Of a stretch of DNA of 64,000 nucleotides, positions 3,745 to 56,677 are shown piece by piece. How positions within the stretch are numbered: position 1 is the stretch's first letter; every line of letters begins with the position of its first letter. The position numbers and the translations under genes are program-made. The notes beneath the pieces are model-generated. The model saw only the letters and a list, made by a program, of their open reading frames with translations. It did no database searches and was not told the DNA's origin. The stretch is taken from assembly GCA_963759775.1 (NCBI GenBank), contig CAVXAH010000001.1, positions 38,787 to 102,786 of the forward strand, given 5' to 3'. The stretch comes from an uncultured bacterium (lineage in GTDB: Bacteria > Patescibacteriota > Minisyncoccia > Phycocordibacterales > Phycocordibacteraceae).

Positions 3745-3749
3745 TCACC

Positions 3750-4104: not shown

Positions 4105-4118
4105 TAACTAGCTACTTG

Positions 4119-4131
4119 CCCCGTTAGAGGC
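4119..4131. repeat. solo copy of the CCCCGTTAGAGGC terminal-repeat motif (family A) between rplQ and rplM
   Basis: 13-nt identity with the left end of the 55758-55876 element; no partner within 150 bp. Confidence 0.4.
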
Positions 4132-4147
4132 TCCACGATATAACCCT

Positions 4148-4549
4148 ATGACATCAACCATGACATCAACCCCAAAAACCAAAGCCTCTAATGGGGTGCA
4201 AGAAACGAGCTTCACCATTGACGCAACGAACCGCACACTTGGCCGTGTGGCAAGCGAGGCGGCGCATGCGCTTCTTGGGAAGCGTTCCGTGCACTTCGCA
4301 AAGCATATTCCACTTCCCGTGAACGTCACAATAGAAAACGTCGCCAAGCTCCACCTCCCCGAGCGCCGCACAAAAGGAAAGGTGTACCTCTACTACACCG
4401 GTTATCCAGGCGGCCAGAGGGCAGTACGCATGGACGAATTCATCGCTAAGAAGGGCATTGAAGAAGCTGTTCGTAAAACGGTAGATGGCATGATTCCTCG
4501 TAACAAGCTCCGCCGCGAGCGCATGAAGCGCCTTACGGTCACCAAATAA
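4148..4549 (+). CDS. rplM: 50S ribosomal protein L13
   Basis: 133 aa, L13 core similarity (NRTLGRVASE..., RMIPRNKL). Confidence 0.9.
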   Translation: MTSTMTSTPKTKASNGVQETSFTIDATNRTLGRVASEAAHALLGKRSVHFAKHIPLPVNVTIENVAKLHLPERRTKGKVYLYYTGYPGGQRAVRMDEFIAKKGIEEAVRKTVDGMIPRNKLRRERMKRLTVTK

Positions 4550-4550
4550 T

Positions 4551-4949: not shown

Positions 4950-4958
4950 AAAAACCAA

Positions 4959-4990
4959 AAGAACGTCCGCAAAATGCGGACGTTCTTTAT
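4959..4990 (+). terminator. rho-independent terminator after rpsI
   Basis: gaacgtccgc-aaaat-gcggacgttc followed by tttat. Confidence 0.7.
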
Positions 4991-4992
4991 AA

Positions 4993-5022
4993 TTGACAGC
5001 GCGCTTGTGGCGCGTTTATAGT
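4993..5022 (+). promoter_or_regulatory. sigma70-like promoter (TTGACA-17-TATAGT) with a GC palindrome in the spacer
   Basis: ttgaca gcgcgcttgtggcgcgt ttatagt, then the RBS aaaggag ahead of the 5082 ORF. Confidence 0.5.
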
Positions 5023-5081
5023 GCAGACAGAGGTAGAGCACATTTTGTGGTAAACCAACCCAAACCAAAAGGAGCCCGACA

Positions 5082-5741
5082 ATGCACAAGCAGATAGGTA
5101 TGGCCTTCATGGCCATGTTTTTTGTTTCGGGGGTGGCATTTGCGGAGGACGAACAGTCCAAAGCACCTACCCTAAAGTCCTGCCAGGTTGCCAACAAGGA
5201 CAGTCGGTTGTGCCTGTTGCACGTTGACTATGGCCGGCCGCTTCAGCAGATGGTGATTGACGGCATGTTCAAGACTGTGGAAGAGCAAATCGACCTACAG
5301 AAATGGTCGGTCGTGCTGGAACCGGAAGCTCCAAGATTGGTTGCTGTCGGGATTCTTCGGCTTACGGCGAAGGGTATGGAGTCACTTTCCATCGATGGGC
5401 AAGGCATCTCCTCCACGATAGTGAGGGACTGGATGGCCGCCCATCGCTTACGTCCGGCAAATTTGCACGAACTGCTTGCTTTCCGTCTCGCCGGATCGGC
5501 ATGGGACCCTGAGCCATATTCGTGGCTTGTGGCACTTGGATTTGTCGCCACCCTAAATGGCGCCGACTACGTGCCACTGATTGATCTTGCTGAGGGTGGT
5601 TGGCAGCTCATTTTGTCGGAAGATGATTATTGGGACCCCGATACTCGGTTCCTCGCCGTTCTTGAAGATCAGCGGACGCCAGGCGACGTGATTCGTGAAC
5701 AGCTCCGGAAAACGCTGGACTCAGAAGTTTCTACGAGGTAA
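5082..5741 (+). CDS. hypothetical secreted protein (signal peptide)
   Basis: 219 aa; N-terminal hydrophobic signal-like segment MAFMAMFFVSGVAFA; strong RBS; no known domain recognised. Confidence 0.5.
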   Translation: MHKQIGMAFMAMFFVSGVAFAEDEQSKAPTLKSCQVANKDSRLCLLHVDYGRPLQQMVIDGMFKTVEEQIDLQKWSVVLEPEAPRLVAVGILRLTAKGMESLSIDGQGISSTIVRDWMAAHRLRPANLHELLAFRLAGSAWDPEPYSWLVALGFVATLNGADYVPLIDLAEGGWQLILSEDDYWDPDTRFLAVLEDQRTPGDVIREQLRKTLDSEVSTR

Positions 5742-5765
5742 TTTCGTTCTTCGTTTCATCCCAAA

Positions 5766-5798
5766 GACCCAGCACTTACGCTGGGTCTTTTATTTTTG
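5766..5798 (+). terminator. rho-independent terminator
   Basis: agacccagc-acttac-gctgggtct followed by tttattttt. Confidence 0.7.
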
Positions 5799-5822
5799 AC
5801 TCCAGACTTTCTTTCAGGCATA

Positions 5823-5871
5823 CCCCGTATAAGAACTTTCTATAAAACTTGAAAAAAGTTTCTATACGGGG
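5823..5871. promoter_or_regulatory. inverted repeat CCCCGTATA-N31-TATACGGGG with nested AT-rich hairpin, 15 nt upstream of grpE; candidate heat-shock operator
   Basis: 9-bp perfect arms; internal aaactt-gaaaa-aagttt hairpin and a TTTCTATA direct repeat; not CIRCE or HAIR consensus. Confidence 0.4.
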
Positions 5872-5885
5872 CATAGTGGAGACCA

Positions 5886-6444
5886 ATGAGTGATAATGAT
5901 GATGTACATATTGAATCCGATGACGCTGAAAGCGGTGCGAGCGAGTCTGAAATAGCCGAGAATGAGTCGCGTGCCGAAACAAAGCTCGGGAAGCTCCACG
6001 CAGAACTTGATGCGTGCAAGAAAGAGAAACAGGAGTACCTGGACGGCTGGCAGCGCTCAAAGGCAGACTATGTAAATGCGTTGAAACGTTCTGAGGGCGA
6101 TTTAAAAACGGCCCGGTCAGTGGGGCTTATGAAGGCTGTAGAAGCCCTTCTCCCTGCGTATGACGCTCTTGGGCGCGCGACCGGGCACGGCGAAGTACCT
6201 GCTGGTTTTCAGGCTATTGCTAAGCAACTAGAAAGTTCCTTCGCTACGCTCTGGGCTCACGGAGGTGGGGAAGGTCGGTGAGAAGTTTGACCCTCTGATT
6301 CACGAGGCCCTGGGACAGGATCCCGTAGACTCAGAAAACAAGGATGACACGGTCACGGCAGTTCTTGAGACAGGTTGGAAGATTCAAGATACAATCATCC
6401 GACCAGCAAAAGTGCGCGTCGGGCGTTTTCAGGAAAATAAATAG
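5886..6444 (+). CDS. grpE: nucleotide exchange factor GrpE, with apparent +1 frameshift near 6273
   Basis: N-terminal 131 aa in frame 0, GrpE C-terminus (GEKFDPLIHEAL...VRVGRF) in frame +1; an extra g in the aagg run restores one ORF. Confidence 0.85.
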
Positions 6445-6490
6445 TTGCATTTGTTTTCCTTTTTTTGTATTTTTTATTATCTTACTATAA

Positions 6491-8388
<1,898 letters not shown>

Positions 8389-8465: not shown

Positions 8466-9554
8466 ATGGCTAAGGACTACTACTCAGTGCTGGGAGTTGA
8501 TAAGAAGGCAAGTACGGACGATATTAAGAAGGCGTTCCGCAAACTTGCTCACAAATACCATCCGGACAAGGGCGACGGGGACGAAGCGAAATTTAAAGAA
8601 GTAACGGAGGCGTACAGCGTCCTTGCGGACGAAAAGAAGCGTCGCGAATACGACACGTACGGTCAGGCATTTGCGGGTGGAGGAAGACGCGGTGGCGCTC
8701 CCGATTTTGGTGGTTTTGATTTTAGCCAGTTCCAACAGGGGTTCGGTAACGGTGGCGTGGAGTTTGACTTCGGAGACGTGTTTGAAGGATTTGGGGACAT
8801 TTTTGGTGGCGGGCGCCGCAGCAACCGCGCGAAGCGCGGTCGTGATATTTCTATTGACCTTGAAGTCACCTTCAAAGAATCCATTTACGGTACGAAGCGC
8901 ACTGTTTTGATAGCGAAAATTGCGACTTGCACCTCCTGCGCAGGCACCGGAGCCAAGTCTGAAACAGAAATGGAGACCTGCAAAACTTGCAATGGTTCAG
9001 GTCGTGTCCACGAGGCAAGGAATTCTATTCTCGGCCAGTTCACGAGCGTGCGCACCTGCGTTATGTGCGACGGGCTCGGAAAGATACCGAAAGAGAAATG
9101 CGCGGAGTGCAAAGGTCATGGCGTTCATCGCAAAGAAGAGGAAATTCAGGTGATGATCCCCGCTGGTCTTGAAAACGGCGAAATGATTCGTCTGCCTGCG
9201 CAAGGCGAAGCAGTGAAGGGCGGTTCTGCCGGTGACCTTTATGTAAAAGTGCATGTTGCGCCACACCCTACGTTTAGAAAGGACGGCAGCAACCTCGTTA
9301 TGGAGCTTCCCGTGAAGCTTACCGACGCGCTCCTTGGGAGCACGGTCTCTATTGAGACACTTGAAGGTAAAACACTTGAGGTGAAGATTCCACAAATGCA
9401 GCGCGCCGAAGAAATACTCCGTGTGAAAGGGAAGGGTGTGTCGTATGAAAACGGACGCGGCGACTTGCTTATCCACGTGCACGCTGCACTCCCGCACAAG
9501 CTCTCCGGTAAAGCGAAGAAGGCGGTAGAGGACCTGAAAGCAGAAGGACTCTAG
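8466..9554 (+). CDS. dnaJ: chaperone DnaJ
   Basis: J-domain with HPD (KYHPDK), G/F-rich linker, four CxxCxGxG zinc-finger repeats, C-terminal domains. Confidence 0.95.
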
Positions 9555-9701
9555 AACCCATTTCAAAATTTCGACACGAGCGGGGCACTGTCTCCGAGGG
9601 GGTCGCGAAGTACGACGGTGCGAGCGTTTCAGGCGTTTTTTGAGCACAAAAATGCCGTACCCGAGAAGGCAGTATCCCGTGAGTGGGTTTTGAAATGGGT
9701 T
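9555..9701. repeat. about 147-bp intergenic element with 14-bp terminal inverted repeat AACCCATTTCAAAA (family D, copy 1)
   Basis: about 85% identical to 51107-51246; internal conserved hairpin ggcgtttttt-gagcac-aaaaa(a)cgcc with a G-U compatible substitution. Confidence 0.7.
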
Positions 9702-9737
9702 CTAAAAGCCGCACCCGCGGTGAGTTAGAATATATGC

Positions 9738-10259: not shown

Positions 10260-10302
10260 TCAGCCCGCCTCTTGTGCTCCGTGGTATATTTTTGTCATGA
10301 AT

Positions 10303-10417
10303 CCCGTTAGAAATCGCGGACGCCGTCGAAGCCGTAAAGCGGGTTTTTTTACTAACCTTAATCGGATAGGGTTCGGTCGTGCAGTTACCTGCGTGTCCGC
10401 GTCCTATTTCTAACGGG
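10303..10417. repeat. MITE-like element (family A), TIR CCCGTTAGAAAT / ATTTCTAACGGG, abutting the tyrS ATG
   Basis: 12-bp perfect TIR extended by a covarying stem (atcgcggacgc / gcgtgtccgcg); internal TAATCGGATAGGG core shared, in inverted orientation, with 49096-49198. Confidence 0.7.
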
Positions 10418-11670
10418 ATGAACATCGCTGAGGATTTGAAGGCGCGAGGGCTCGTGGAGCACTCATCTGCTGATGTCGCCACCATTCTTGGCACCCCGCG
10501 TACGGTGTACCTCGGCATAGACCCCACTGCCGACTCACTCCACGTCGGGCACTTAGTTCCCATTCTTTTTATGAAGCGGCTTGCCGCGGCAGGTCATAAG
10601 CTTGTCTTTTTGGTTGGGGGCGGTACCGGCATGATTGGCGATCCGAAAGAGAAAGGGGAGCGCGTACTGCTTGATGAGAAAACCATAAGTAAAAATACGG
10701 AGGCTCTCAAAAAACAACTTGAAGACATTTTGGGACGCTTGCCATTCAAAATGGTAGACAACGCCACATGGCTCTCTAAGGTCCGTCTTGTGCCATTCCT
10801 TCGCGACATAGGAAAACACTTCACCGTAAACGACCTCGTAAAGCGCGACCTCATAGCAAAACGCCTTGCAACTCCGGATGAGAGTATTTCGTACACTGAA
10901 TTCACCTACTCACTTCTCCAGGCCTATGATTATTTGGAATTAAATACTAAATACCACTGCGATCTTCAGGTTGGGGCTTCGGACCAATGGACGAACATTC
11001 TTTCGGGTGTTGACCTTATCCGCAAGAAAAAGGAAAAGAAGCGTTCGCGCTCACGGTTCCTTTGGTTACTGACGCGAGCGGCAAAAAGTTTGGGAAATCC
11101 GAAGGAAATGCAGTATGGCTTGACCCTGAGAAGACATCTCCGTACCAGTTCTATCAGTTTTGGCTTGGCTTACCGGACGAAGGCATAGAAAAGTATCTCA
11201 AGATTTATACTACTCTTCCGCTTGGAGACATTGAGGCACTTATGGAGAAGCATCGCGCGGCTCCACAAGAGCGCGAGGCGCAAGAGGTGCTTGCGCGTTT
11301 CGCGACTGAGTCGTTGCATGGCCCAGCAAATACCGCAGAAGCGGCGGCGGCAACCGATGCGCTTTTTGGCGGACGCTCTCTTGAAAGCCTTAGTCGCGAC
11401 GAGCGTGAGGCGGTCATACGAGAAGTCCCATCCCTCGCACTTTCAAAGAAAGAACTTGAGGCAGGGTATCCACTTACTGAAGCACTAGTGGGAGGTAAGC
11501 TTGCTTCCTCAAAGTCCGATGCGCGCCGACTTATAGAAGGGAAGGCGGTTACTCTAAGCGGGCTGTTAATCGAAAATGCAGATCAAAAACTCTATCCGGG
11601 CGACCTCAGTGGCGGCCTCGCACTCATTCGCAAAGGCAAGCGCGATGTGCTCGTTTTGGTTTTGAAATAA
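10418..11670 (+). CDS. tyrS: tyrosyl-tRNA synthetase, apparent frameshift near 11030-11040 (A-run)
   Basis: class I HIGH motif (LHVGHL), KFGKSEGN (KMSKS-like), C-terminal S4 domain; pieces 10418-11188 and 11062-11670 colinear with TyrRS; start taken as MNIAEDLKARGLVE at 10418. Confidence 0.9.
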
Positions 11671-11699: not shown

Positions 11700-11783
11700 G
11701 CGTCGGTAGGTAAGTGGTCAAAACACGCACGCTGTAAACGTGCTGCCCTCGCGGCTTCGGAGGTTCGAATCCTCCCCGGCGCA
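11700..11783 (+). tRNA. tRNA-Tyr (anticodon GTA), type II with long variable arm; CCA not encoded
   Basis: acceptor stem GCGTCGG/CCGGCGC (one G-U), anticodon stem GCACG/CGTGC with loop CTGTAAA, T-arm GGAGG-TTCGAAT-CCTCC; D-arm pairing weak. Confidence 0.7.
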
Positions 11784-11798
11784 CACAAAAAAGGACGT

Positions 11799-11828
11799 CC
11801 CGAGCGTGAGCTCGGGCGTTTCTTTTTG
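11799..11828 (+). terminator. rho-independent terminator after tRNA-Tyr
   Basis: cccgagc-gtga-gctcggg followed by cgtttcttttt. Confidence 0.6.
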
Positions 11829-11833
11829 TGGCA

Positions 11834-11850
11834 GCCGGGGAGGATTCGAA
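11834..11850. repeat. inverted 17-nt copy of the tRNA-Tyr T-arm/acceptor 3' segment
   Basis: gccggggaggattcgaa is the exact reverse complement of ttcgaatcctccccggc at 11764-11780. Confidence 0.8.
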
Positions 11851-18004: not shown

Positions 18005-19425
18005 GGCTTGTTTTTACAAAAGGAACGATAGACGCCGCCCCCAAGGGTTATGTACGCGTGCGGATCACTCACGAACCAAAAGGAACGAGGAAGTTTGTTC
18101 GCGAGGGCGCCGTTGAGTGGCTTGAGCTCGGTGCAGGAAAACCAACGGACATGAACTACCGTAAGTTTATGGTGCTGTGCCGATCTGTTGTTCAAACCGC
18201 TAAAGGAAATAAAGCAAGAAAAATTGCTATTCAGTTTGACCGTACTCCTGAATTTTTTGAAAATTTGCAGAACCATACGCCTGAAGAAATTTCACGTGTC
18301 GCGGCAGAGAATTTTGAGATGGCGAACTTTGACTGGAATGTCTTTAAAACGAAACCAAAAGAGGGGTGGAATACGGTAGAAGAAATCCTCCTCTACGGCG
18401 GGTCTTCAAAGTCAATTGAGAAGGCTGCGCAAGTGGGTCAGATGGTGGGGCAGGGCGTAAATGCCTGCCGGGCACTTGCAAACACCCCAGGGGGCGACAT
18501 GACTCCCCTGAAGCTCGCCAAAGCCGCAAAAGAGGCTGTAAAAGGGCTTGCCGGTCAAGGTAACTACCCTTGGGCAAGAAAGAGATGGAAAAGCTTGGTA
18601 TGGGGGCTCTTTTGGGGGTCGCAAAAGGGTCGTCCGAGGAGCCTACATTTACCGTCATGGAGTACCGAGCTGGCGGCAAAGAAAAGCCCAGTCGTGCTTG
18701 CCGGTAAGGGAGTTACGTTTGATAGCGGCGGACTCAATTTGAAACCCTCCGGAAGCATTTATGAAATGCATATGGATATGTCGGGTGCCGCTTCTGTCAT
18801 ACACGCCGTTGCGCTCGCCGCTCGTCTCAAACTCAAAAAGAATGTCATCGGACTTCTTCCGTCCGTTGAAAACATGCCGGGCAATAGCGCGTATCGCCCC
18901 GGAGATGTGCTCAAATCTCTTTCTGGAAAAACTATTGAGGTCTTGAATACGGATGCAGAGGGTCGCCTGATTCTTGCCGATGCACTTACGTATGCAAAAC
19001 GTTTCAATCCGTCAGTTGTATTTGATGTAGCGACACTCACTGGTGCAGCAGTCTCTGCGCTTGGTCTTCATGCAAGCGGACTCATGACGCGCGACGACAA
19101 AGTCGCGAAAAAAGTGGAGGAAGCGGGCGAGGAGTCGGGAGATTATGTGTGGCGTCTCCCGCTTTGGGATGAATACGAAGAAGCGATAAAGGGAACGTTC
19201 GCTGATATCACTAATTCCGCAACGGGCCCGTACGCGCGTTCTGGCGGCGCAATAGAGGGCGGCATGTTCCTCTGGCAATTTGCAAAAGAACTCGGAGTGC
19301 CCGTGGGTGCATCTTGATATTGCGCCACGGATGACTGCGGCGCCGGGAGACGAGCTTGCGAAGGGTGCGGCCGGAGCCCCCGTGCGACTCCTGGTAAAAT
19401 TTATAGAACAATGGCCGTCACACTA
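18001..19425 (+). CDS. pepA: leucyl aminopeptidase (M17 family), with clustered apparent frameshifts (near 18550, 18575, 18690, 19300)
   Basis: NTDAEGRL signature and VLAGKGVTFDSGG; alternative frames encode KKEMEKLGMGALLGVAKGS and the true C-terminus WVHLDIAPRM...VRLLVKFIEQW ending at 19425. Confidence 0.85.
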
Positions 19426-19548
19426 AACAGTGTTGCCGCACGCACGATTACGAGAGTGGTACTATTTAAAAATGACTTTCCCTACACGAAAATCCCCAAG
19501 TCCTAATGACGGTGCGGCCAAAGCCGCGACACCGTTTTAGTGTGTCGG
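19415..19548. repeat. MITE-like element (family B), TIR CCGTCACACTAAAC / GTTTTAGTGTGTCGG, filling the pepA-scpA junction
   Basis: each TIR is the exact reverse complement of the opposite TIR of the GIY-YIG element at 22259-22542; the left TIR contains the pepA stop codon. Confidence 0.75.
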
Positions 19549-19551
19549 CCA

Positions 19552-20289
19552 ATGGAAACCCTAGTTCATCGCACTGGATTTTCTATTAAAACTGCCTCGT
19601 ATGAGGGACCCTTTGAGGTTGTGCTTGACCTTATAGAGGCACGTAAACTTTTGATAAATGAATTTGCGCTCGCAACCATAACTGACGACTACATTCAGCA
19701 TGTTCGAAAGCAGGAAACATTTCCGGTTGAGCAAACGGCAAATTTCATTCAAATCGCTGCAACTCTCCTCCTCATAAAATCAAAGTCGCTTATTCCGGAC
19801 CTTGAGCTCACCGAAGATGAGCAGGGGGATGTGGAGGATTTGAAGAGACGACTTGCTACGTACGAGCGTGTACGAGACGCGGCGCGCGAGCTTGCTCGTG
19901 TGTTTGGAAAAGAAGTGATGCTCCCGGCAGGGGAGAAGAAGCCTGAGGTCATGTTTGCGCCTGCGGCAGATATGACGAGCTTGGCGCTTTCCGAAGCGCT
20001 CGCGCGTGTACTTGCCGCACGCGAAGCAGTGGAAGAACTCCCCGAAGCGCGCGTAAAGCCGATGATTACTATTGAAGAGATGATGGATCGTCTCGCAAAA
20101 CGTGTGCAGTCGGCCATGACGCTTTCTTTCAAGGAATTCTCCGGAACCGCAAAAGAAAAAGTGGAAGTGATTGTTTCTTTCCTCGCTCTCCTTGAGCTTG
20201 TGAAGCAGGGTGCCGTTGGTGCGGAGCAGTTTGAAAACCACGGCGATATTCGTATTTCTCATACCGGCACAGGCGTCCCGAGCTATTGA
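19552..20289 (+). CDS. scpA: segregation and condensation protein A
   Basis: ScpA family N-terminus (FEGPFEVVLDLIEARKL..I.E..LA.ITDDY) and C-terminal winged helix; start taken at METLV. Confidence 0.8.
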   Translation: METLVHRTGFSIKTASYEGPFEVVLDLIEARKLLINEFALATITDDYIQHVRKQETFPVEQTANFIQIAATLLLIKSKSLIPDLELTEDEQGDVEDLKRRLATYERVRDAARELARVFGKEVMLPAGEKKPEVMFAPAADMTSLALSEALARVLAAREAVEELPEARVKPMITIEEMMDRLAKRVQSAMTLSFKEFSGTAKEKVEVIVSFLALLELVKQGAVGAEQFENHGDIRISHTGTGVPSY

Positions 20290-22258: not shown

Positions 22259-22542
22259 CCGACACACTAAAACAACCTTGCGAGACGACTATGTATTACG
22301 TATATATTTTGCAAAGTAAGAAAGACGGGAAGTTTTACACGGGATACACCACTGATTTACGACGTCGTCTCGCAGAACACACGACAAGAGCCTCAATCTC
22401 AACGCGCTCGCGACTTCCTCTGCAACTGTTATATTACGAAGCATATATGTCGCAGGCCGACGCAAAATCTAGAGAGTATCGCCTTAAGACTTCTCAAGGC
22501 GCGCGCACTGCATTAAAGCGACGAGGTCGTTTAGTGTGACGG
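22259..22542 (+). mobile_element. TIR-flanked GIY-YIG gene unit (family B putative autonomous copy)
   Basis: imperfect 15-18 bp TIRs CCGACACACTAAAAC / GTTTAGTGTGACGG immediately flank the ORF; right TIR overlaps the ORF stop and the mraY start; same TIR family as 19415-19548. Confidence 0.55.
22291..22539 (+). CDS. GIY-YIG nuclease superfamily protein (YhbQ/UPF0213-like)
   Basis: 82 aa, YVYIL..K.GK.YTGYT.DL.RRL.EH then Y.E motifs. Confidence 0.8.
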   Translation: MYYVYILQSKKDGKFYTGYTTDLRRRLAEHTTRASISTRSRLPLQLLYYEAYMSQADAKSREYRLKTSQGARTALKRRGRLV

Positions 22543-23606
22543 GTATGATTAGTCTCGCCGCTCAAGTTTTCATCCCATCTGCAATCGCGTTCGCGCTTGG
22601 CATCGTCTTTGCGCCACTTCTCGCTGGAATTTTATATGAAAAGAAAGCGTGGAAAAAGAAAGCGGGGAAGGGTAATGGTATGGGCGGCGGTGGCACTCCT
22701 ATTTTTGATGAACTTCATAAGATACGGGAGGTTTCAACGCCACGCATGGGCGGCATTTTAATCTGGGCATCGGTTTTAGCGACCGCATTTGGAATCTGGC
22801 TCCTCGCTCGAACCGTGGGTGGTGTTTTTCTTGACCTCAACTTCATAGACCGAAGCGAAACGTGGCTCCCCATTTTTGCACTGTTTGTTGGGGCCATTGC
22901 GGGACTCTTTGATGACCTTCTAGAGATATCTTCAGGCACGGGAGGTCTCTCTCTTCGCGGAAGACTCGCCATTGTAGCGGTAATGGGGCTTGCTGCGGGA
23001 TGGTGGTTTTATACAAAACTCGGCGTTACGGCTCTCGGCATTCCTTTCGGGAATCCGCTTGAACTGGGCGCTCTTATCATTCCATTTTTTGCTCTGGTAA
23101 CCCTCGCTATTTATGCGGGCGGGACAATTGATGGAATTGACGGACTTGCGGGGGGAGTTTTTGCAATTATTTTCATGACGTACGCCGGCATCGCCTTTGG
23201 AGAGAGCCAGTTCGCACTCGCAACCTTCGCTGCAACGTGTGCAGGCGCGACACTGGCTTTTCTTTGGTTCAACATCCCACCCGCGCGCTTCTATATGTCG
23301 GAAACCGGCAGTATGGCTCTTACGCTTGCGCTTGCCATGACCGCGTTTGCGGCCGATAACCTTGCAAAGGGCGTGGGGGTGTTCGTGCTTCCTCTCGTCG
23401 CGCTTCCACTCACCGCAACGGTCATTACGACCCTGCTTCAGGTGTTTTGGAAAAAGTCCTTTCATACCAAACTTTTCATGGTCGCGCCTATTCACCATCA
23501 TTTTGAAGCTCTTGGTTGGCCACCCTATAAAGTCACGATGCGCTACTGGGTGATTACGATCATTGCCGGTGTTTTGGGCCTTTCAATCGCGCTCATTTCC
23601 GCGTAG
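22536..23606 (+). CDS. mraY: phospho-N-acetylmuramoyl-pentapeptide transferase
   Basis: DD motif, DGIDGLAGG, HHHFE motif (PIHHHFE), 10 TM helices. Confidence 0.9.
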   Translation: MTGMISLAAQVFIPSAIAFALGIVFAPLLAGILYEKKAWKKKAGKGNGMGGGGTPIFDELHKIREVSTPRMGGILIWASVLATAFGIWLLARTVGGVFLDLNFIDRSETWLPIFALFVGAIAGLFDDLLEISSGTGGLSLRGRLAIVAVMGLAAGWWFYTKLGVTALGIPFGNPLELGALIIPFFALVTLAIYAGGTIDGIDGLAGGVFAIIFMTYAGIAFGESQFALATFAATCAGATLAFLWFNIPPARFYMSETGSMALTLALAMTAFAADNLAKGVGVFVLPLVALPLTATVITTLLQVFWKKSFHTKLFMVAPIHHHFEALGWPPYKVTMRYWVITIIAGVLGLSIALISA

Positions 23607-30823: not shown

Positions 30824-31267
30824 CTATTCTGCCTCAACGATTATTTGGAACTTGCCGAAACTCTCTCCTGCAGAGACTGGGACATCAAACGTGCCGACTT
30901 CTTTGATTGGCTTTTCAAGGCGAACTACGTCTTCTGGGAGTTCAATGTGAGCCTGCTCACGAACTGCATCGAGAATCTCTGTCTCCCCCACTGCGTCGTA
31001 GAGGTGCCCTTTCTCGTTCACCTTCATCTTGATTACAATGCGCTTCTCGCCAAGCGTCTCCAAGCTCTGGGCTACCAAGGTTCCCTGCATTTTGCGCTGT
31101 ACGTCCATCTGCTTCTTCCTGAGCTCTGCGTTCTTGCTAGCCGCCGGAGTAGCAGGAATGGCCATTTTCTTAGGGATAAGGAAGTTCAGGCCATGCCCGT
31201 CCGACACCGTGATGGTGTCGTGCATTCGGCCTGTGTCCTTCACATCTTTCGTCAATATAACTTTCAT
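30824..31267 (-). CDS. rplI: 50S ribosomal protein L9
   Basis: MKVILTKDVK..G..GD...V..G...NFL N-terminal domain, 147 aa. Confidence 0.9.
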   Translation of the reverse strand: MKVILTKDVKDTGRMHDTITVSDGHGLNFLIPKKMAIPATPAASKNAELRKKQMDVQRKMQGTLVAQSLETLGEKRIVIKMKVNEKGHLYDAVGETEILDAVREQAHIELPEDVVRLEKPIKEVGTFDVPVSAGESFGKFQIIVEAE

Positions 31268-31268
31268 A

Positions 31269-31404
31269 CCCTGGGGTACAGCATGGCATTGCTCCTAAGT
31301 GGCTAGCCGTGACGTAGAAATATAGAGATTATTAAATCAATACCGCACGAGGAGCAGAGCGGACATCGGAGCAAAAAGCCACGATGCCATGCTGTCCCAC
31401 GGGG
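31269..31404. repeat. MITE-like element (family C), 21-bp TIR CCCTGGGGTACAGCATGGCAT, directly upstream of the rplI start
   Basis: right end ATGCCATGCTGTCCCACGGGG is a near-perfect reverse complement; second copy at 53369-53500. Confidence 0.7.
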
Positions 31405-31446
31405 CATAGTCAGGCTATCCTAACCGTTTAAACGCCAAAAGGCAAC

Positions 31447-47362: not shown

Positions 47363-49095
47363 AGTGAGGAGGGCGTAGTGGCACGGTCGGGCGGTACGTC
47401 GTAGTAATTAATCAGGAAGTGAGTCAGGTTCATGAAGGTAGAAGTGAGTGTTTCGGATGCGTAGCGAACCCCTTGCGGATCGTTGGTGTAAAGGAGAATG
47501 ATAAACCGCGGCGCGTACGAAGGAAAGTAGCCGAAGAAGGAGTGGAAGTACCTATCTTTGTAGTACCCGCCTCCGGGCATGGTGAGCTGGGCAGTTCCGG
47601 TCTTTGCCGCAACAGACATAGACGCTATTTTTTCCTTTCCCTGCGCAAGGTCAAAGTCAACGACGTGAGTAAGCATTCCCGCGACCGTGCGCACTGCCTC
47701 CGGAGAAAACACCTCCACTGTCTCCGGTGGCTCAAGAGTCCGCGTGATGCCGGTATCAAGCTTAATGGCGCGCGTGAGGTAGGGCCGAGCCATTGCCCCG
47801 TCGTTTGCGAGCGCACTTAAGGCACTTATCATTTGCACCGGTGTTACCGCGATACCTTGGCCAAATGAGGCGGTGTCGTAACCTACCTGCTGCGGCCTTG
47901 AGATGTTTTGGAGAAGACTTCCCGTTTCACTTGGAAGGTCAATGTGTGTCTTCTCGCCAAAGAGGGTCGTGAAGTACGTTCGGAGTCGCTCTTTGCCGAG
48001 TTGTCGCCCAACCCAGGAGGCGCCGAGGTTCAAAGATTCCGACAAAATTTGCTGTACCGCTACCCTTCCGCGCGCCTTGAGGTCAAAGTTGCAAATAGTG
48101 TAGGTATCCACGTCCATACAACCCGTATCGTTATAGGTTGAGTCGGCGGTTATCGCATCCGCATCAAGGCCAGCGGCCACAGTGAGTGGCTTCACTATGG
48201 AGCCAAATTCATACACATGCTCCACAAGCGGATTCCCGAGAACCGCCGGGTCAACACTTGAGAGATCGTTCGGGTTGTAGGTCGGGACCGTGAGAAGAGC
48301 GAGAACGGCTCCTGTGCGCGGGTCCATAATGATTCCGCCTGTTTCTTTGCTCTTAAATTTCGCGTGCACTGCTTTAATTTCACTCTCAAGCCGAGTCGCA
48401 ACCGCGGGCTCAATGGTGGTTACCACATTGCCCTCACGTACGTTTTTTGTATCAATGAGTAAATCCCCCGCGCCTGAGAAAAGGGTTGCGAAGAAATTTT
48501 TATAAAGAGAGTCACCGCTGCGCGCGAGTGTGTGGTCATAGTACGACTCAAGACCTGTTCGTCCGGAAAGACTGTCGCCGCTACCATAGGAAACGATGCC
48601 AACTGACTGTGCCGCAAGCGTCCCTCCAGGATACTCTCTCCAGCGCTCACGAAGCACTATGACGCCGGGTATTTTAAGCGCGGCGAGCGCGCGACCTTCC
48701 TCTTCCAAAAGATGATGCGCTATCTCAACATACACACGCTCGGACCGTAGAGATGCGGCGAGGAATACCTCACGGTCAATGGTAGAGGTGGCGAGTGCGG
48801 TCGTAAGGGAGTTGTAAGCGGCTTCGGGGTCTTTAAGGGTCTGGGGATTCATTGCGAGCAAAAACCCCGTTTGAAGGGTCGCGGCTGAAATGAGTGCTCC
48901 GTCCTTGCGAGTGAAATAAATAGACCCGCGATCAAAAAGTCCACTTATGCCGCCGGAAAACTGCCGCTCGGCCTTGAGCGCATACGTTTCTCCCTGCACG
49001 ATTTGGACAATGTAGAGGCGTCCGGCGATAAGGATCGCGATGATAAGAATTCCGAGAAATACAAGTCGGATACGGAGTCTAAACTGCGCGCGCAT
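47359..49095 (-). CDS. ftsI: penicillin-binding protein (transpeptidase; FtsI/PBP3-like)
   Basis: SxxK (SIVK), KTGTA motifs, N-terminal TM; dcw position before murF. Confidence 0.9.
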   Translation of the reverse strand: MRAQFRLRIRLVFLGILIIAILIAGRLYIVQIVQGETYALKAERQFSGGISGLFDRGSIYFTRKDGALISAATLQTGFLLAMNPQTLKDPEAAYNSLTTALATSTIDREVFLAASLRSERVYVEIAHHLLEEEGRALAALKIPGVIVLRERWREYPGGTLAAQSVGIVSYGSGDSLSGRTGLESYYDHTLARSGDSLYKNFFATLFSGAGDLLIDTKNVREGNVVTTIEPAVATRLESEIKAVHAKFKSKETGGIIMDPRTGAVLALLTVPTYNPNDLSSVDPAVLGNPLVEHVYEFGSIVKPLTVAAGLDADAITADSTYNDTGCMDVDTYTICNFDLKARGRVAVQQILSESLNLGASWVGRQLGKERLRTYFTTLFGEKTHIDLPSETGSLLQNISRPQQVGYDTASFGQGIAVTPVQMISALSALANDGAMARPYLTRAIKLDTGITRTLEPPETVEVFSPEAVRTVAGMLTHVVDFDLAQGKEKIASMSVAAKTGTAQLTMPGGGYYKDRYFHSFFGYFPSYAPRFIILLYTNDPQGVRYASETLTSTFMNLTHFLINYYDVPPDRATTPSSL

Positions 49096-49198
49096 CCCGT
49101 TAGAAATAGAACACGAACACTCTCGAAGTGTTGTGCCCTATCCGATTAGGTCCAATAATCATATGCCTCATCATATCGTGTTCGTGATTTCTAACGGG
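49096..49198. repeat. MITE-like element (family A), TIR CCCGTTAGAAAT / ATTTCTAACGGG, abutting the ftsI start codon
   Basis: 12-bp perfect TIRs, covarying sub-terminal stem (agaacacgaaca / tgttcgtgat), internal CCCTATCCGATTAGG core inverted relative to 10303-10417. Confidence 0.7.
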
Positions 49199-49213
49199 AC
49201 GCATTGTACAAGA

Positions 49214-50877: not shown

Positions 50878-50973
50878 GGGAGCGAAGCGACTTAGAAAAT
50901 CTTTACCCTGTTAAATCTTTCGCCTCTGGCGAAAGGCCGGCGGAGCCGGATTTAACAGGGTGGGACTCGCTCC
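50878..50973. promoter_or_regulatory. about 96-nt nested hairpin in the mraZ upstream/leader region (candidate structured RNA or MITE-like palindrome)
   Basis: outer GGAGCGA/TCGCTCC, perfect 12-bp CCCTGTTAAATC/GATTTAACAGGG, two internal GC hairpins (tttcgcc-tctg-gcgaaa, ggccggc-gga-gccgg). Confidence 0.4.
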
Positions 50974-51106: not shown

Positions 51107-51246
51107 TATTTCAAAACCTCAACACGAGCGGGGCACTGCATCCGAGGGGGTCGCGAAGTTGGGCGGTGCGAGCGTTTCAGGCGTTTTTTGAGCACAAAAA
51201 ACGCCGTACCTGAGGAGGTAGTGGCCCGTGAGTGGGTTTTGAAATA
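51107..51246. repeat. about 140-bp element with 12-bp TIR TATTTCAAAACC (family D, copy 2), ending 4 nt from the lysK stop
   Basis: about 85% identity with 9555-9701 including the perfect hairpin ggcgtttttt-gagcac-aaaaaacgcc. Confidence 0.7.
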
Positions 51247-53320: not shown

Positions 53321-53368
53321 ACGTGTGCTGTTTGCGGGCATTGTACGTGCTCTGCTCTGAAGCGCAAG

Positions 53369-53500
53369 CCCTGGGGTACAACATGGCATCGTGTCTTTAG
53401 CTCCAACGATCAAAAGCTATAAACCTTTTGTTTTTATGTGACGTCTGGCAACTGAAATAAACGTAGGACACGAAGAGTAATGCCATGTTGTCCCACGGGG
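53369..53500. repeat. MITE-like element (family C) copy 2, TIR CCCTGGGGTACAACATGGCAT / ATGCCATGTTGTCCCACGGGG, 48 nt upstream of greA
   Basis: TIRs match 31269-31404; internal sequence differs but keeps sub-terminal complementarity. Confidence 0.7.
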
Positions 53501-53524
53501 CAAGCCCATAAGGAAAAATCGATT

Positions 53525-55222
53525 TTATTTGAAGTAGTCCGAGGCAGTTTCGCGAAGTTCCGAAAACACCTGGCTCATGACGTAAATACCGCCAAGCGTA
53601 TTTGTTGAAGGACCACGTTCCATAACCACCACATACACATATTTCGGTTTTTCATACGGAAAAAAACCGACTGCCCAAGAGTTGTGGTACTCGTTCCGGA
53701 CGCCTGTCTGCGCCGTGCCTGTTTTTCCTGCAAGATGCGCGAGAGAGTCAAACGAAATAAGTCCGCTTGAAGTACCATCTCGTACTCCTTGCCGCATACC
53801 TTCGCGCACGATTTGAAGTGCCTCTTTAGTAATGGGAAGTTCTACGCCTTCTGACGGCGCGTCCGGAAGACGTGTCGTGGACTCCTTGAGGACGGTCGGG
53901 GTAACAAGCACTCCGTCATTTGCTACCGCCGCAATCGCACGCGCCATTTCAAGAGCTGTCACCTGCATCGCATATTGCCCGATCGCGGTGTGGTACGTGT
54001 TGCCGATATTCCACTTCTCACCATACGTTTCTTCTTTCCAGCTTGGAGTTGGCACAAAGCCGCTCGCTTCCCCGGGAAGCGCCACACCGGCCGGATCCGT
54101 AAGACCAAATGTGCGATACCAGTATGCGAGGCGTTCAATACCAAGTCCCTTCTGAGCGCCGAACCCTCCACCGACGATGTAGAAATAAATGTCGGAAGAC
54201 CATGCAATTGCCCTCCGTAGATCAACGGTCCCATGTATCTTCCAATCTTTAAATATATTGGGATTTTCTGGATTGTAAGGGTTCGGTATGGAAATAAAAC
54301 CTTTGCTGTCGTAAATGGTGTATTCCGGTGTAATGATGCCGTCAGTGAGCGCGCCGGCTGCGAGAAGTGGCTTCACGACAGAGCCTGGCGCATAGAGCCC
54401 CTGCACAGGCCGATTGAGGTACGGACGGCGCGCGTCCTTGCTATAGCCCTCAATAACACTTGAGGGTCCGCCCGAGGCAAGCACGTTCGGGTCGTATTCA
54501 GGATACGAAACGAGTGCGCGTAGTTCTCCCGTATCTACATCCATCAAAATGCCAGAGCCACCGGAAAACGAGACGTTGTCTGCGAGACCCTTGATAGCTT
54601 TATAAAATGCCTCTTGCACACGCGCATCTATGGAAAGCGTGAGGGAGTGCCCAGGCACGGCAGGCACCACAACACCTTGGGACTTCACTTCGCCAAGGGC
54701 ATCTGTTTCAACAAGGAGACGACCTCCCTCTCCGCGAAGTTCTGCATCATAGGAAGCCTCAATACCTGCGAGACCTTTTGTTTCCGTACTGTAGTAATTG
54801 CCCTTGGAATCTTTTTTGGGGTATGAAACGTACCCTAGGAGTGCTCCGAACCCTGGCGTTTTGTATACGCGGCGAACGAAGCCGCCCTCGGTTGCTTCGT
54901 TCGTGATGAGTGGGATGCCGTTAGTGTCAGAAATGATGCCGCGTTCTGCAAACAACACATGCTCCTCAAGCGAGTTTCGTTCGCTCGCCTCGGCATAGGT
55001 GCTCCCCTGTCGGACTTGTAAATTCCAAACCTGTGCAAGAAGGAGAAGCAGAATGAGACCGAGCGACCCACCGAGTAGGACGAACGCAGAGCGCGCGAGC
55101 GGGCGTTCAAGCCTGCCTTCAAAACGCGAGCGGTCAAACTCCGAGACGTTTGCATCATCAAGAAATATTTCGTCTGGATCTATCTCAAAACCTCGTGTTT
55201 TTCTTTTTCCCCACAATCTCAT
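53525..55222 (-). CDS. mrdA: penicillin-binding protein 2 (elongasome transpeptidase)
   Basis: SxxK (SVVKP), KTGTA motifs; upstream of mreD/mreC/mreB. Confidence 0.9.
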   Translation of the reverse strand: MRLWGKRKTRGFEIDPDEIFLDDANVSEFDRSRFEGRLERPLARSAFVLLGGSLGLILLLLLAQVWNLQVRQGSTYAEASERNSLEEHVLFAERGIISDTNGIPLITNEATEGGFVRRVYKTPGFGALLGYVSYPKKDSKGNYYSTETKGLAGIEASYDAELRGEGGRLLVETDALGEVKSQGVVVPAVPGHSLTLSIDARVQEAFYKAIKGLADNVSFSGGSGILMDVDTGELRALVSYPEYDPNVLASGGPSSVIEGYSKDARRPYLNRPVQGLYAPGSVVKPLLAAGALTDGIITPEYTIYDSKGFISIPNPYNPENPNIFKDWKIHGTVDLRRAIAWSSDIYFYIVGGGFGAQKGLGIERLAYWYRTFGLTDPAGVALPGEASGFVPTPSWKEETYGEKWNIGNTYHTAIGQYAMQVTALEMARAIAAVANDGVLVTPTVLKESTTRLPDAPSEGVELPITKEALQIVREGMRQGVRDGTSSGLISFDSLAHLAGKTGTAQTGVRNEYHNSWAVGFFPYEKPKYVYVVVMERGPSTNTLGGIYVMSQVFSELRETASDYFK

Positions 55223-55226
55223 GGAT

Positions 55227-55493
55227 TTATCCCGTTAGAGATAGGAAGCGCTTGAGCCGGTTTTTGAGATAACGCTTACCCATTCCCGTTTTGAGGTACT
55301 TTTCACGCGCAAAAGCATCTTCGGCCGTTTGAGATGCTTCGTAATATATGAGTGTGAATGGACCACGTCCTTTAGTGTACGCCACTCGATTTGAATTGTG
55401 CAGGGCCAAGCGCTTCCGAAGATCTTTCGTGCAGCCGGTATACCATCGACCGTCACTTTTAGCTTGGAGAACGTACACATACACAAACGACAT
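55227..55493 (-). CDS. GIY-YIG nuclease superfamily protein (YhbQ/UPF0213-like), paralog of 22291-22539
   Basis: 88 aa, VYVYVL....G.WYTGCT.DL.KRL..H and YYEA motifs. Confidence 0.8.
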   Translation of the reverse strand: MSFVYVYVLQAKSDGRWYTGCTKDLRKRLALHNSNRVAYTKGRGPFTLIYYEASQTAEDAFAREKYLKTGMGKRYLKNRLKRFLSLTG

Positions 55494-55506
55494 AATCTCT
55501 AACGGG
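55231..55506 (-). mobile_element. TIR-flanked GIY-YIG gene unit (family A putative autonomous copy)
   Basis: perfect 12-bp TIRs CCCGTTAGAGAT / ATCTCTAACGGG lie 1-3 nt outside the stop and start codons of the GIY-YIG ORF; same TIR family as three MITE-like copies. Confidence 0.6.
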
Positions 55507-55758
55507 ACGCGATAATACTCGTCTCAAAGAATCTGCGCACGGAATAGGAAAGCAGTGCGGCGAGTGCCCCAAGAGTGCTGTACAGAAAGGGTGGATGTAT
55601 ACCCGGGACATAGTAGAGAATGTCAGCGAAAAGCCCTATAGCAAGCACCGAAAGTGGCGAGACGATTCCCGCAAGTAGCGCGAGCAGTCCCGATACGACT
55701 GCTGGAAATACAAAAAGTGAGGCGATGGCAGACAAAATAATGGTCGCGCGGATGTTCA
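55499..55758 (-). CDS. mreD: putative rod shape-determining protein MreD (small polytopic membrane protein)
   Basis: position after mreC; hydrophobic 85-110 aa; annotated from the GTG at 55758 because the longer ATG start (55834) lies inside the repeat element. Confidence 0.45.
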
Positions 55759-55876
55759 CCCCGTTAGAGGCAGGTCGCGACCCAACATCAACTCGAGATC
55801 GTTGGGTGAAAAAGAGATTTTTACCGTAATTCATATTTAACTCTTAATCGAACGGGACCGCGGCCTCTAACGGGGG
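55758..55876. repeat. MITE-like element (family A), CCCCGTTAGAGGC / GCCTCTAACGGGG, overlapping the mreC 3' end and mreD 5' end
   Basis: imperfect about 20-bp TIRs including a covarying extension (aggtcgcgac / ggaccgcggc); internal ctcttaatcgaacggg resembles the family core. Confidence 0.6.
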
Positions 55877-56677
55877 TACTGGGAGTGTAAGGCCCGTGTC
55901 TTTCAGGACTACCCACGTTATTGAAAAAGGATTTTGGACAGGGGTAATCAAAAGCGTGGCGGAGGGAGACGCTGGATCTGTTTCCACGTGCGTGACGGTC
56001 CCAACGAAAAGTGCACCGGGACCTGGGGCGTATACGCCGTCGCCAACACCAATGGCGGCACTCTTTGAAACCTGCGCGGTGAATGTTCCCCCACCCGCTC
56101 CTAGAATTGAAAGTGCGGTTCTGTTTTTCCCTACCCACCCGGGCGTTCGCATGCCAGAGGAAGAAAAGAGAGTGATGCGGGCAAATGACGACGTGAGGGA
56201 CGTGACGAGGCCGAGCGGCGTGCCGCCACGGCCAAAGGCCTCCATGCCAAGGGTTACACCTGCGTCTTCACCCGCATTCACGACAAGCGTGTCATACGGA
56301 GCCTGTGGAGGTCGGGCGAGTACGCCCGCGGCAATCCCCGATGGAGACTCAGCCCCTTTCCCAATAAGCGCTTCCAAATCGCTTACTCTTTCTGAGAGGG
56401 TTCGGTTCTCCGTAGATCGCTCGGCATTTTGGAGCATGAGATGTTCATTTTCTGCCCTAAGCTTCTTTGCATCCACAAACCCAGACATCAATGAGTCCGC
56501 CTTTTCTGTTATAGAATCCCCTGCTCGAAAAAGCGGAGTCGCTATTTTAAGGAAAAAGTCCGGCAGAAGAAGCCGGATGGCAAATAAAGCAAGTACGAAC
56601 ACGAACACCACCGCTCCCGCGGTGACCCCCGAAGGAGAGAGTAATGCGTTACGCCTCAGGGAGTATCTCGTCTTCAT
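55844..56677 (-). CDS. mreC: rod shape-determining protein MreC
   Basis: N-terminal TM, coiled coil, MreC beta domains; internal Met start chosen. Confidence 0.85.
   Translation of the reverse strand: MKTRYSLRRNALLSPSGVTAGAVVFVFVLALFAIRLLLPDFFLKIATPLFRAGDSITEKADSLMSGFVDAKKLRAENEHLMLQNAERSTENRTLSERVSDLEALIGKGAESPSGIAAGVLARPPQAPYDTLVVNAGEDAGVTLGMEAFGRGGTPLGLVTSLTSSFARITLFSSSGMRTPGWVGKNRTALSILGAGGGTFTAQVSKSAAIGVGDGVYAPGPGALFVGTVTHVETDPASPSATLLITPVQNPFSITWVVLKDTGLTLPVPPLEAAVPFD

Follow-up and report, generated by a model that had tools for sequence, protein, structure and literature searches.

A GIY-YIG nuclease gene in the loop of its own terminal stem: a candidate small mobile element with gene-less derivatives in Patescibacteria

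The closest described systems are those of Ssn and NTS, in which genes for single-domain GIY-YIG nucleases acting on single-stranded DNA (ssDNA) are flanked by hairpin repeats that occur genome-wide (Chenal et al. 2025, Nat Commun, PMC11893778; CDD cd10448). Ssn enzymes bind the hairpin in ssDNA only, cut a few nucleotides upstream and need both structure and sequence, and cutting persists when the hairpin halves are on separate oligonucleotides (PMC11893778). Neisseria SsnA/NTS was shown to modulate natural transformation; the authors noted the insertion sequence (IS)-like NTS-ssnA-NTS layout and the analogy to REP/RAYT, showed the role in transformation and not transposition, and did not discuss Patescibacteria (PMC11893778). 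The present analysis concerns a 64-kb stretch of contig CAVXAH010000001.1 from an uncultured Patescibacteriota bacterium, called the window throughout, and a GIY-YIG nuclease gene that lies in it between mreD and mrdA, enclosed by an inverted repeat. The gene, its repeat and their relatives are called family A. An earlier note on this DNA had described the unit as having the architecture of an autonomous transposon with derivatives that are miniature transposable elements with inverted repeats (MITEs). The reading reached here is a small mobile element that carries a nuclease gene of about 86 aa in the loop of its own terminal stem and has gene-less derivatives of 30-120 bp, with a probability of roughly 0.6. 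It is very likely that family A is a family of mobile, hairpin-ended elements with gene-less derivatives.

The gene-bearing element and its gene-less copies

Five paired family-A elements were located in the window, one gene-bearing and four gene-less (78-117 bp).

55230..55507, minus strand: gene-bearing family-A element, stem to stem, 278 bp, between mreD and mrdA
55495..55507, minus strand: 5' (upstream) inverted-repeat arm, TCCCGTTAGAGAT on the minus strand, which holds the mreD TAG stop
55227..55493, minus strand: single-domain GIY-YIG nuclease gene, 88 aa (Pfam PF01541, E 3e-14)
55230..55242, minus strand: 3' (downstream) arm, ATCTCTAACGGGA on the minus strand, which codes for the nuclease C-terminus SLTG
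4119..4196, plus strand: gene-less copy, 78 bp, ending at the rplM GTG; one G.T in the stem; fold z -4.2
10302..10418, plus strand: gene-less copy, 117 bp, at the tyrS start; direct repeat ATGAA at 10297-10301 and 10418-10422; ssDNA fold z -5.0
49095..49199, minus strand: gene-less copy, 105 bp, at the ftsI start; direct repeat ATGCG (CGCAT on the plus strand, 49091-49095 and 49200-49204)
55759..55875, minus strand: gene-less copy, 117 bp, at the mreC/mreD junction; fold z -6.3

The 12-bp perfect inverted repeat described earlier around the GIY-YIG open reading frame (ORF) is confirmed as first seen, and the gene it surrounds is intact. Its arms, CCCGTTAGAGAT (55231-55242) and ATCTCTAACGGG (55495-55506), match perfectly, and an outer T/A pair extends the repeat to 13 bp. 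Both arms had been placed outside the ORF. This holds for the upstream arm, which ends 1 nt before the ATG, and fails for the arm at 55231-55242, which codes for the last residues, (L)SLTG. On the minus strand the locus reads ...ATTATCGCG T CCCGTTAGAGAT T ATG TCG ... CTA TCT CTA ACG GGA TAA ATCC ATG AGA... The mreD stop codon TAG (55499-55501) falls within the upstream arm, and the mrdA ATG (55222) follows the downstream arm after 7 nt. Searching the window for CCCGTTAGARAT with at most one mismatch returned 6 matches against 0.49 expected, a count reached in none of 100 shuffles. The sequence CCGTTAGA matched 10 times against 1.47 expected; nine of these matches are in the five paired elements and the tenth (45821), within tRNA-Glu, is a chance match. 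Apart from this chance match the motif is always paired in the window, and its occurrence as a hairpin without paired ends before many genes was not seen.

The three gene-less elements first reported to be bounded by the same ends were recovered, the limits of the third being corrected to 55759-55875. What had been taken for a solo end at 4119-4131 pairs with 4183-4196 (CCCCGTTAGAGGCT / AGCCTCTAATGGGG, one G.T) and forms the 78-bp element. The sub-terminal stems covary as proposed, in that their sequences differ among copies and pairing is kept. When the gene-less window copies were folded as ssDNA, each gave a long hairpin (z-scores between -4.2 and -7.0), and the three longer ones have an asymmetric 4-nt bulge on the 3' arm. 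This bulge and the adjoining stem (TYCTATTTCTAACGGG) agree with the sequence at the nuclease gene's 3' end (TTCCTATCTCTAACGGG), so that about 20 nt of the gene (TYCTATYTCTAACGGG) are retained in the gene-less copies as an asymmetric bulge plus stem. Because of this match the gene-less copies look like internal-deletion derivatives. All four stop exactly at a start codon: the ATG of tyrS and ftsI and the GTG of mreD and rplM. In the copy at 55759-55875 the outer G supplies the mreD GTG start (55759), and mreC takes its last codons and its stop from the body.

The rplM-side copy holds a 12-nt tandem duplication at 4148-4171 (ATGACATCAACC twice), which creates in-frame ATGs upstream of the native rplM GTG, so that automated gene prediction may carry L13 into the element. 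The tyrS gene (10418-11670) is split into overlapping frames at 10418-11188 and 11062-11670 after a lysine-rich run, reflecting a frameshift, a homopolymer sequencing error or a pseudogene.

Terminal stem, codon use and nuclease across the family

Relatives of the protein number more than 2,500 at 90% clustering; most are about 86 aa long, 65-80% identical and from Patescibacteria. A scan with one genome per species gave 475 relatives of the nuclease, and 80 loci from Patescibacteria and some other phyla were fetched. Almost all of these roughly 80 homologous genes have NCCCGTTAGAGnnn upstream and nnnCTCTAACGGGN at their last codons, and the terminal stem consensus is YCCCGTTAGAGnn ... nnCTCTAACGGGR, 13-14 bp. 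The ends were compared in a gapless alignment (A2) of 76 distinct end pairs from the 80 genome loci and the window copy. The 13-bp stem is kept throughout, columns 6-18 pairing with columns 39-51. Pair 18/39 is UA in 32 end pairs, CG in 25 and AU in 19 and is never unpaired; the outermost pair, 6/51, is UA in 38, CG in 29, GC in 3, AU in 1 and unpaired in 5. Cells with both sides changed numbered 107 compared with 39 in shuffles, none of 500 shuffles reached 107, and slid controls were far lower. Compensated changes also occur in the core (ACCGTTAG/CTAACGGT, CACGTTAG/CTAACGTG and GTTAAAG/CTTTAAC). The stem mismatches are few, and no strand bias between G.T and A.C is apparent among them.

The codons that form the 3' arm are fixed at their synonymous positions. 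Of 81 elements, 80 use CTA for Leu(-2) and 80 use ACG for Thr(-1), while TCT encodes Ser(-3) in 67 of 67; elsewhere in the nuclease gene up to six codons are in use for Leu, Ser and Thr. The residue encoded at the variable stem position switches among S, A, T, P, F, V and I in step with the opposite arm. Several database proteins start M-N-P/T/H-V-R-D, which is the upstream arm translated. The constraint on the 3' arm acts on nucleotides and not on the protein, and the ends act as a base-paired stem rather than as classical terminal inverted repeats (TIRs) read by a protein.

Some loci depart from the simple arrangement. In locus L055 three family-A genes lie within 3.3 kb (3230-6560), with frames that continue into long downstream ORFs and flanks that look swapped, which suggests recombination between copies. 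At 3977-4359 of locus L015 a gene-bearing copy has a gene-less one nested within its 3' arm.

The catalytic residues of the 88-aa nuclease are intact (Y5/Y7, Y18, G20, R28, H32, E64 and N78, all invariant alignment columns). PF01541 is the only Pfam domain above cut-off, and the protein has no DNA-binding domain. The AlphaFold model (pLDDT 90) is one compact GIY-YIG domain with a C-terminal helix, and its best structural matches by Foldseek are UPF0213 BH0048 (1zg2) and the Slx1 nuclease domain. The best sequence match is also 1zg2 (E 6e-13), and the KYT+GRGPF motif is common to UPF0213/Slx1 and family A. A search of NCBIfam gave no specific family for the nuclease and a weak match to TIGR01453. 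The family-A protein scored 51.6 bits against YazA (UPF0213) and 48.5 bits against a Sinorhizobium GIY-YIG protein with NTS-like repeats, a weak proxy for SsnA, and the plasmid search for Ssn-like relatives returned YazA-type and rhizobial proteins only. By sequence, family A would thus be placed about equally close to UPF0213 YazA/BH0048 and to the rhizobial NTS-flanked gene. At one plasmid locus (L084; Sinorhizobium sp. K101 pK101a, 1267715-1269136) an unannotated GIY-YIG gene lies between direct repeats of about 110 bp; these hold an NTS-like hairpin (CTCATTCCTGTGCTTGTCACAGGAATCCAG), and the reading frame continues through the downstream repeat. The context of B. subtilis yazA is the fixed housekeeping order trmNF-yazA-rsmI with no inverted repeat, whereas family-A genes have variable neighbours and conserved repeats.

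Empty sites, direct repeats and shared start codons

Three genomes whose MrdA is 75%, 70% and 65% identical to that of the window were used for comparison (P0122, L081 and L082). All keep the order proS-mreB-mreC-mreD-mrdA-greA, and L081 and L082 also keep mraZ-rsmH-ftsL-ftsI-murE. In the relatives mreD and mrdA overlap or are 6 nt apart with no gene between them, mreC and mreD share an ATGA stop/start overlap, and ftsL and ftsI (in L081 and L082) are separated by 4-18 nt. The window insertions are missing from these genomes at every junction that each covers (mreD/mrdA, mreC/mreD and ftsL/ftsI). At the ftsI site L081 reads GGTAGCAC ATGCG CGCGCAA and the window reads TTGTACA ATGCG T[CCCG...CGGG] ATGCG CGCGCAG. 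The reciprocal case was found at ftsI/murE, where L081 has a gene-less copy of the ftsI-site subfamily, ATGAA T[CCTG...CAGG] ATGAA, whose stem carries the compensated pair of changes C>T/G>A; the same junction in the window and in L082 is a plain ATGA overlap without an element. Related genomes, which the earlier note had proposed to check for empty sites, are therefore polymorphic for presence and absence, and not uniformly occupied at orthologous positions.

Empty sites were also found for the gene-bearing form. A gene-bearing copy lies between the glutaredoxin and thioredoxin reductase genes (grx/trxB) in loci L077 and L059, and two relatives are empty there; the neighbours on the contigs lacking the copy are 87-88% identical. 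The empty site in L090 reads CTGGGTTTATGATCTTCGAT and the occupied site in L077 reads CTGGGGTTATGA[CCCCG...CGGGG]TTATGATGTTCGAT. The setting of these loci (L077, L059, L090 and L091) is an Omnitrophota-like oxidative-stress cluster of FMN reductase, rubrerythrin, glutaredoxin and thioredoxin reductase, and the family-A gene in L077 and L059 is about 70% identical to that of the window. Genes about 70% identical are present in unrelated contexts on Patescibacteria and Omnitrophota-like contigs. The Omnitrophota-like location indicates transfer across phyla rather than mis-binning alone. Loci L018, L021, L038 and L055 hold multiple family-A gene copies.

These sites bear on the explanation that the elements are not mobile DNA, being instead conserved cis-regulatory or terminator RNA hairpins before start codons. 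The elements do stand directly at start codons and fold stably, and the one G.T in a window stem would be G.U in RNA. No Rfam family matches them: the gathering-threshold scan of the whole window returned only two tRNAs and a permissive scan of 55150-55950 returned one chance-level match. The same ends enclose a protein gene, and the lack of an apparent strand bias among the few stem mismatches would speak against an RNA structure. Since orthologous sites in relatives lack the elements and flanking host sequence is duplicated, this explanation is largely refuted and is given hardly any weight. A secondary, exapted effect of the elements on translation may exist.

Direct repeats were counted in the four bases outside the outermost pair. 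Perfect 4-mer repeats (TGAA, TGAG, TCAA, CTGG, TTGA or TTTA) flank 32 of 81 gene-bearing copies compared with 14.0 in shuffles; with TGAA left flanks excluded, the count is 7 of 56 compared with 1.6 (P about 5e-5). Among gene-less copies 12 of 25 have a perfect 4-mer, with 2.1 in shuffles. An exact search with the 21-nt left end of the ftsI-site subfamily found 21 metagenome contigs with 18 complete copies, 15 of which have a 5-nt repeat (ATGCG, ATGAA, ATGTA or ATGTC). The ATG is fixed and the last two bases vary, so the repeat is duplicated host sequence and not part of the element. A model like that of IS608, in which the element carries its own right-hand ATGAA, was disfavoured because the repeat follows the host gene (ATGCG, ATGTA, ATGTC, ATGAG). 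These results show that insertion targets (A)TGNN-type sites, most often ATGAA or the ATGA stop/start overlap between host genes, and that 4-5 nt are usually duplicated.

Elements and host genes share codons at these targets. The downstream gene is co-oriented with the element in 74 of 79 loci, and in 32 of 81 elements the last base of the right boundary (A or G) and the flanking TG make the ATG or GTG that heads an ORF of at least 80 codons. The nuclease ORF stops right after the final Gly in 63 of 81, mostly at a TGA that overlaps the start codon (ATGA). The upstream host ATG copy (ATGAAT-CCC-GTT-AGA...) is in frame with the nuclease in 19 elements, 13 of which have no internal ATG; where the flank offers no in-frame ATG, an internal one is present in 59 of 62 elements. 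Because the flanking ATG is in frame and an internal ATG is often missing, many copies appear to be expressed from a captured host start codon and ribosome-binding site. The upstream host ATG copy with its ribosome-binding site can start the nuclease ORF, and the downstream copy supplies the nuclease TGA stop and, with the last base of the element, rebuilds the host ATG or GTG. The rebuilt start codon is placed for termination-reinitiation; the host gene remains intact and is probably coupled in translation. Codon sharing at ATGA overlaps explains how the elements can persist in the essential mreBCD-mrdA, dcw and ribosomal-protein operons of very compact genomes, which have hardly any intergenic space. 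The elements also create false N- and C-terminal extensions in annotation, of MreC and MreD here and as MNPVRD- leaders in databases. A conserved upstream ORF running through the gene-less copies, by which translation would be coupled, was considered as well; it fits the tyrS and ftsI copies of the window, fails in L081 (early TAG) and in copies of other lengths, and was rejected as a general rule.

The conserved ends of one gene-less subfamily bear on a different explanation, a domesticated Ssn-type system in which nuclease and repeats serve the host, for example by limiting or shaping ssDNA taken up during transformation, the repeats spread slowly or by another route, and the gene is not a transposase. 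In the subfamily of about 115 nt (L092-L112, window 49095-49199, L027 3565-3680) 21-24 nt at each end are essentially invariant, with two single-base variants in the right end, and the interior is nearly unalignable between groups. Perfectly conserved ends around a diverged interior at the ftsI site fit selection in place. The single gene copy per family in the window recalls REP/RAYT-like domesticated systems, and in Ssn single-domain GIY-YIG genes are likewise flanked by their own repeats and SsnA modulates transformation. Against domestication, the gene itself has occupied and empty sites and, at about 70% identity, occurs in different phyla amid unrelated neighbours; several gene copies occur in L018, L021, L038 and L055; direct repeats and start-codon capture are hallmarks of insertion; and a host function leaves the position of the gene inside the stem unexplained. 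Domestication is therefore considered unlikely, although it is the foremost of the alternatives. Some copies of the same subfamily also share a short motif, TAATCRGATAGRG, in their interior.

Several observations weigh against a mobile element whose own nuclease gene lies in the stem loop. The stem variant of the resident gene is GAGAT, while the gene-less window copies have GAAAT (two) and GAGGC (two). The gene-bearing window copy has no recognisable duplication, and its exact insertion point is not fixed because MrdA in the empty-site genomes is only 65-75% identical. Copies found at different sites were not near-identical, so there is no sign of recent activity. Direct repeats are significant and yet present in about half of copies, the other half lacking them, and their length varies, usually 4-5 nt and 6-7 nt in L077. 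Fixed flanks that are not duplicated recur, TTCA/TAAAT in 9 independent loci and GGATTTA/TGAA in 7; these subclasses would fit a duplication-free insertion between the A and TG of a start codon, or just 5' of TRAA. Within a clade the ftsI-site element appears to have been passed on vertically, its ends conserved and its interior diverging, which could mean a host-level role. Finally, GIY-YIG enzymes are hydrolytic nucleases that act without a covalent intermediate. Since a GIY-YIG enzyme joins no DNA, cutting alone cannot account for integration.

Other families, the mobilizing enzyme and known systems

The window holds a second family of the same design.

22259..22544, plus strand: family-B GIY-YIG element with an 82-aa gene at 22291..22539; repeat CCCGACACACTAAA / TTTAGTGTGACGGG
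19409..19554, plus strand: gene-less family-B copy at a start codon, GGCCGTCACACTAAA ... TTTAGTGTGTCGGCC

The family-B protein is 47.5% identical to the family-A protein (BLASTP), and its element is flanked by a TATGA direct repeat where the stop of the upstream ORF meets the start of the downstream ORF. The same layout with a different repeat was found for a second gene in L062 and for a 52%-identical gene in a viral contig. Phage carriage was sought in IMG/VR, which gave 4 distant relatives, none of family A, two of them ordinary endonuclease genes in phage tRNA clusters.

These relatives help to judge whether a homing-endonuclease gene has lodged in a pre-existing REP-like hairpin, in which case the gene-less copies would not be derivatives. 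GIY-YIG is a classic homing-endonuclease fold, the weak TIGR01453 match points the same way, homing-endonuclease genes typically split their own recognition site, and the very short versions (29-66 nt) found in other genomes look like plain hairpin repeats. Each of family B, the second L062 gene and a more distant relative (L086), however, has its own different repeat in the same arrangement. The 3' arm lies in a conserved reading frame, and the roughly 20 nt of gene 3' end kept in gene-less copies argue for descent from a gene-bearing form. Homing also needs long flanking homology, which the unrelated insertion sites do not offer, and the 88 aa leave no DNA-binding domain. Such an origin is improbable.

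No recognised transposase class (DDE, HUH, serine or tyrosine recombinase) is encoded by the element; the GIY-YIG domain alone is present. An unrelated transposase elsewhere, of the Y1/HUH IS200/IS605 type or of the DDE type, could move the elements in trans with the GIY-YIG gene as a passenger. Mobilization of hairpin-ended repeats by Y1 transposases is well established (REP/REPIN-RAYT, IS200/IS605), and the window covers only 64 kb of the genome. In 665 kb around 80 homologs, however, no longer element (300-5000 bp) and no other gene or transposase with family-A ends was found, the sole exception being a gene-less copy nested in a gene-bearing one. GIY-YIG is the only gene found between the ends, one arm is inside its coding sequence, and different GIY-YIG subfamilies go with different ends. 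Together these points make a trans-acting transposase very improbable.

The GIY-YIG protein is the favoured candidate for the mobilizing enzyme, by a modest degree. The earlier claim of an autonomous transposon with MITE derivatives stands as far as the mobile unit and its non-coding miniatures go, given the empty sites, the repeats and the retained gene 3' end; autonomy is what we infer. In the mechanism envisaged, the two ends would pair when the DNA is single-stranded. A structure- and sequence-specific nuclease of the Ssn/Slx1 type would recognise the stem base and cut beside it, on either strand, and host repair or ligation would complete excision and integration. Cutting of ssDNA is proposed because Ssn enzymes act so and because the fold resembles that of Slx1. 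A single-stranded route of movement is a tentative proposal. It is equally tentative that the nuclease by itself mobilises the element of about 270 bp, which would be a new enzymatic class of prokaryotic transposition, combining a structure-guided hydrolytic nuclease with host repair, in an element that lives by start-codon capture.

If the nuclease is sufficient, the element, at 0.27 kb, would to our knowledge be smaller than any known insertion sequence and the smallest self-mobilising DNA transposon. The result bears on the question left by the Ssn paper, whether minimal GIY-YIG genes with hairpin repeats are mobile. The ends are defined to the nucleotide, so oligonucleotides can be ordered directly. 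Family A, family B and at least two more pairs, in which stems covary and proteins diverge along with them, form a natural library of nuclease/hairpin specificities, and Ssn enzymes have already been proposed as ssDNA tools.

The window also holds at least two more families of inverted-repeat elements of 110-155 bp (CCCTGGGGTACAGCATGGCAT... and ...ATTTCAAAA...TTTTGAAAT...), plus smaller hairpins, at 31266-31407 and 53357-53512; 9552-9704 and 51107-51246; 5820-5874; and 50905-50961. They have no cognate gene in the window, and some abut CAT/ATG; for a compact genome, elements of this kind are unusually numerous in the window. Within 11700-11850, 13 nt after tRNA-Tyr (11700-11784), the 3' end of this tRNA recurs in inverted orientation (37 nt, 81% complementary), which may be an integration or excision scar.

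The comparison with known systems places family A nearest to Ssn, as judged from its published description. In both, the protein has a single domain and about 90 aa, and its catalytic residues are equally spaced (Y6, Y17 and E64 in SsnA; Y7, Y18 and E64 here); both have a motif on each side of the gene and scattered in the genome, in both protein subfamilies pair with different motifs, and both stems start at the base with (T)CCCG...CGGG(A). They differ in that Ssn genes have a self-contained 20-50 nt hairpin on each flank, whereas family A has one arm per flank with the gene in the loop, and the direct repeats, empty sites and start-codon capture of family A are not reported for Ssn. The SRM consensus HGTCWYN(0-2)YYVSBRHN(0-5)WNVSBRGN(0-2)RNCYNB had no match on either strand of the window in a regular-expression scan. 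REP/REPIN-RAYT and IS200/IS605 share with family A hairpin ends with asymmetric bulges, gene-less derivatives that far outnumber the gene, insertion beside a short specific sequence and a likely single-strand substrate. IS200/IS605 elements differ in having an HUH tyrosine transposase instead of a hydrolytic GIY-YIG enzyme (no Y1 HUH was found here), in making no direct repeats, where many copies here have 4-5 nt, and in being about 0.7 kb or more compared with about 0.28 kb.

Bacterial MITEs such as the Neisseria Correia and Rickettsia palindromic elements resemble the gene-less copies in size (80-120 bp), inverted ends, short target duplications and position at gene boundaries, where host ORFs sometimes read through them. 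Unlike these MITEs, the copies here have a cognate coding copy with the same ends, a nuclease that is not DDE, and a start codon as target, which is rebuilt. GIY-YIG homing endonucleases (I-TevI, Seg proteins) have the same catalytic fold and are selfish genes that sit between host genes without disruption. They differ from family A in their size (about 200-250 aa), in separate DNA-binding domains, in using one cognate site by recombination where family A is at many unrelated genes, and in having neither inverted ends nor miniature derivatives. Slx1 cuts branched and stem-loop DNA; unlike family A, it is a larger protein that works with Slx4. Family A is not a REP/RAYT or IS200/IS605 system (no HUH), nor a homing endonuclease (no DNA-binding domain, many sites).

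No paper found in the literature search describes bacterial elements of the GIY-YIG type that have inverted ends, duplicate their target or come with gene-less derivatives. The novelty claimed earlier for a GIY-YIG enzyme between TIRs is weakened by Ssn, for which an IS-like layout had already been remarked (Chenal 2025, PMC11893778). Minimal GIY-YIG genes with hairpin repeats were thus already published in 2025, and the gene-in-loop anatomy, insertion footprints, start-codon capture and gene-less derivatives of family A appear to be new.

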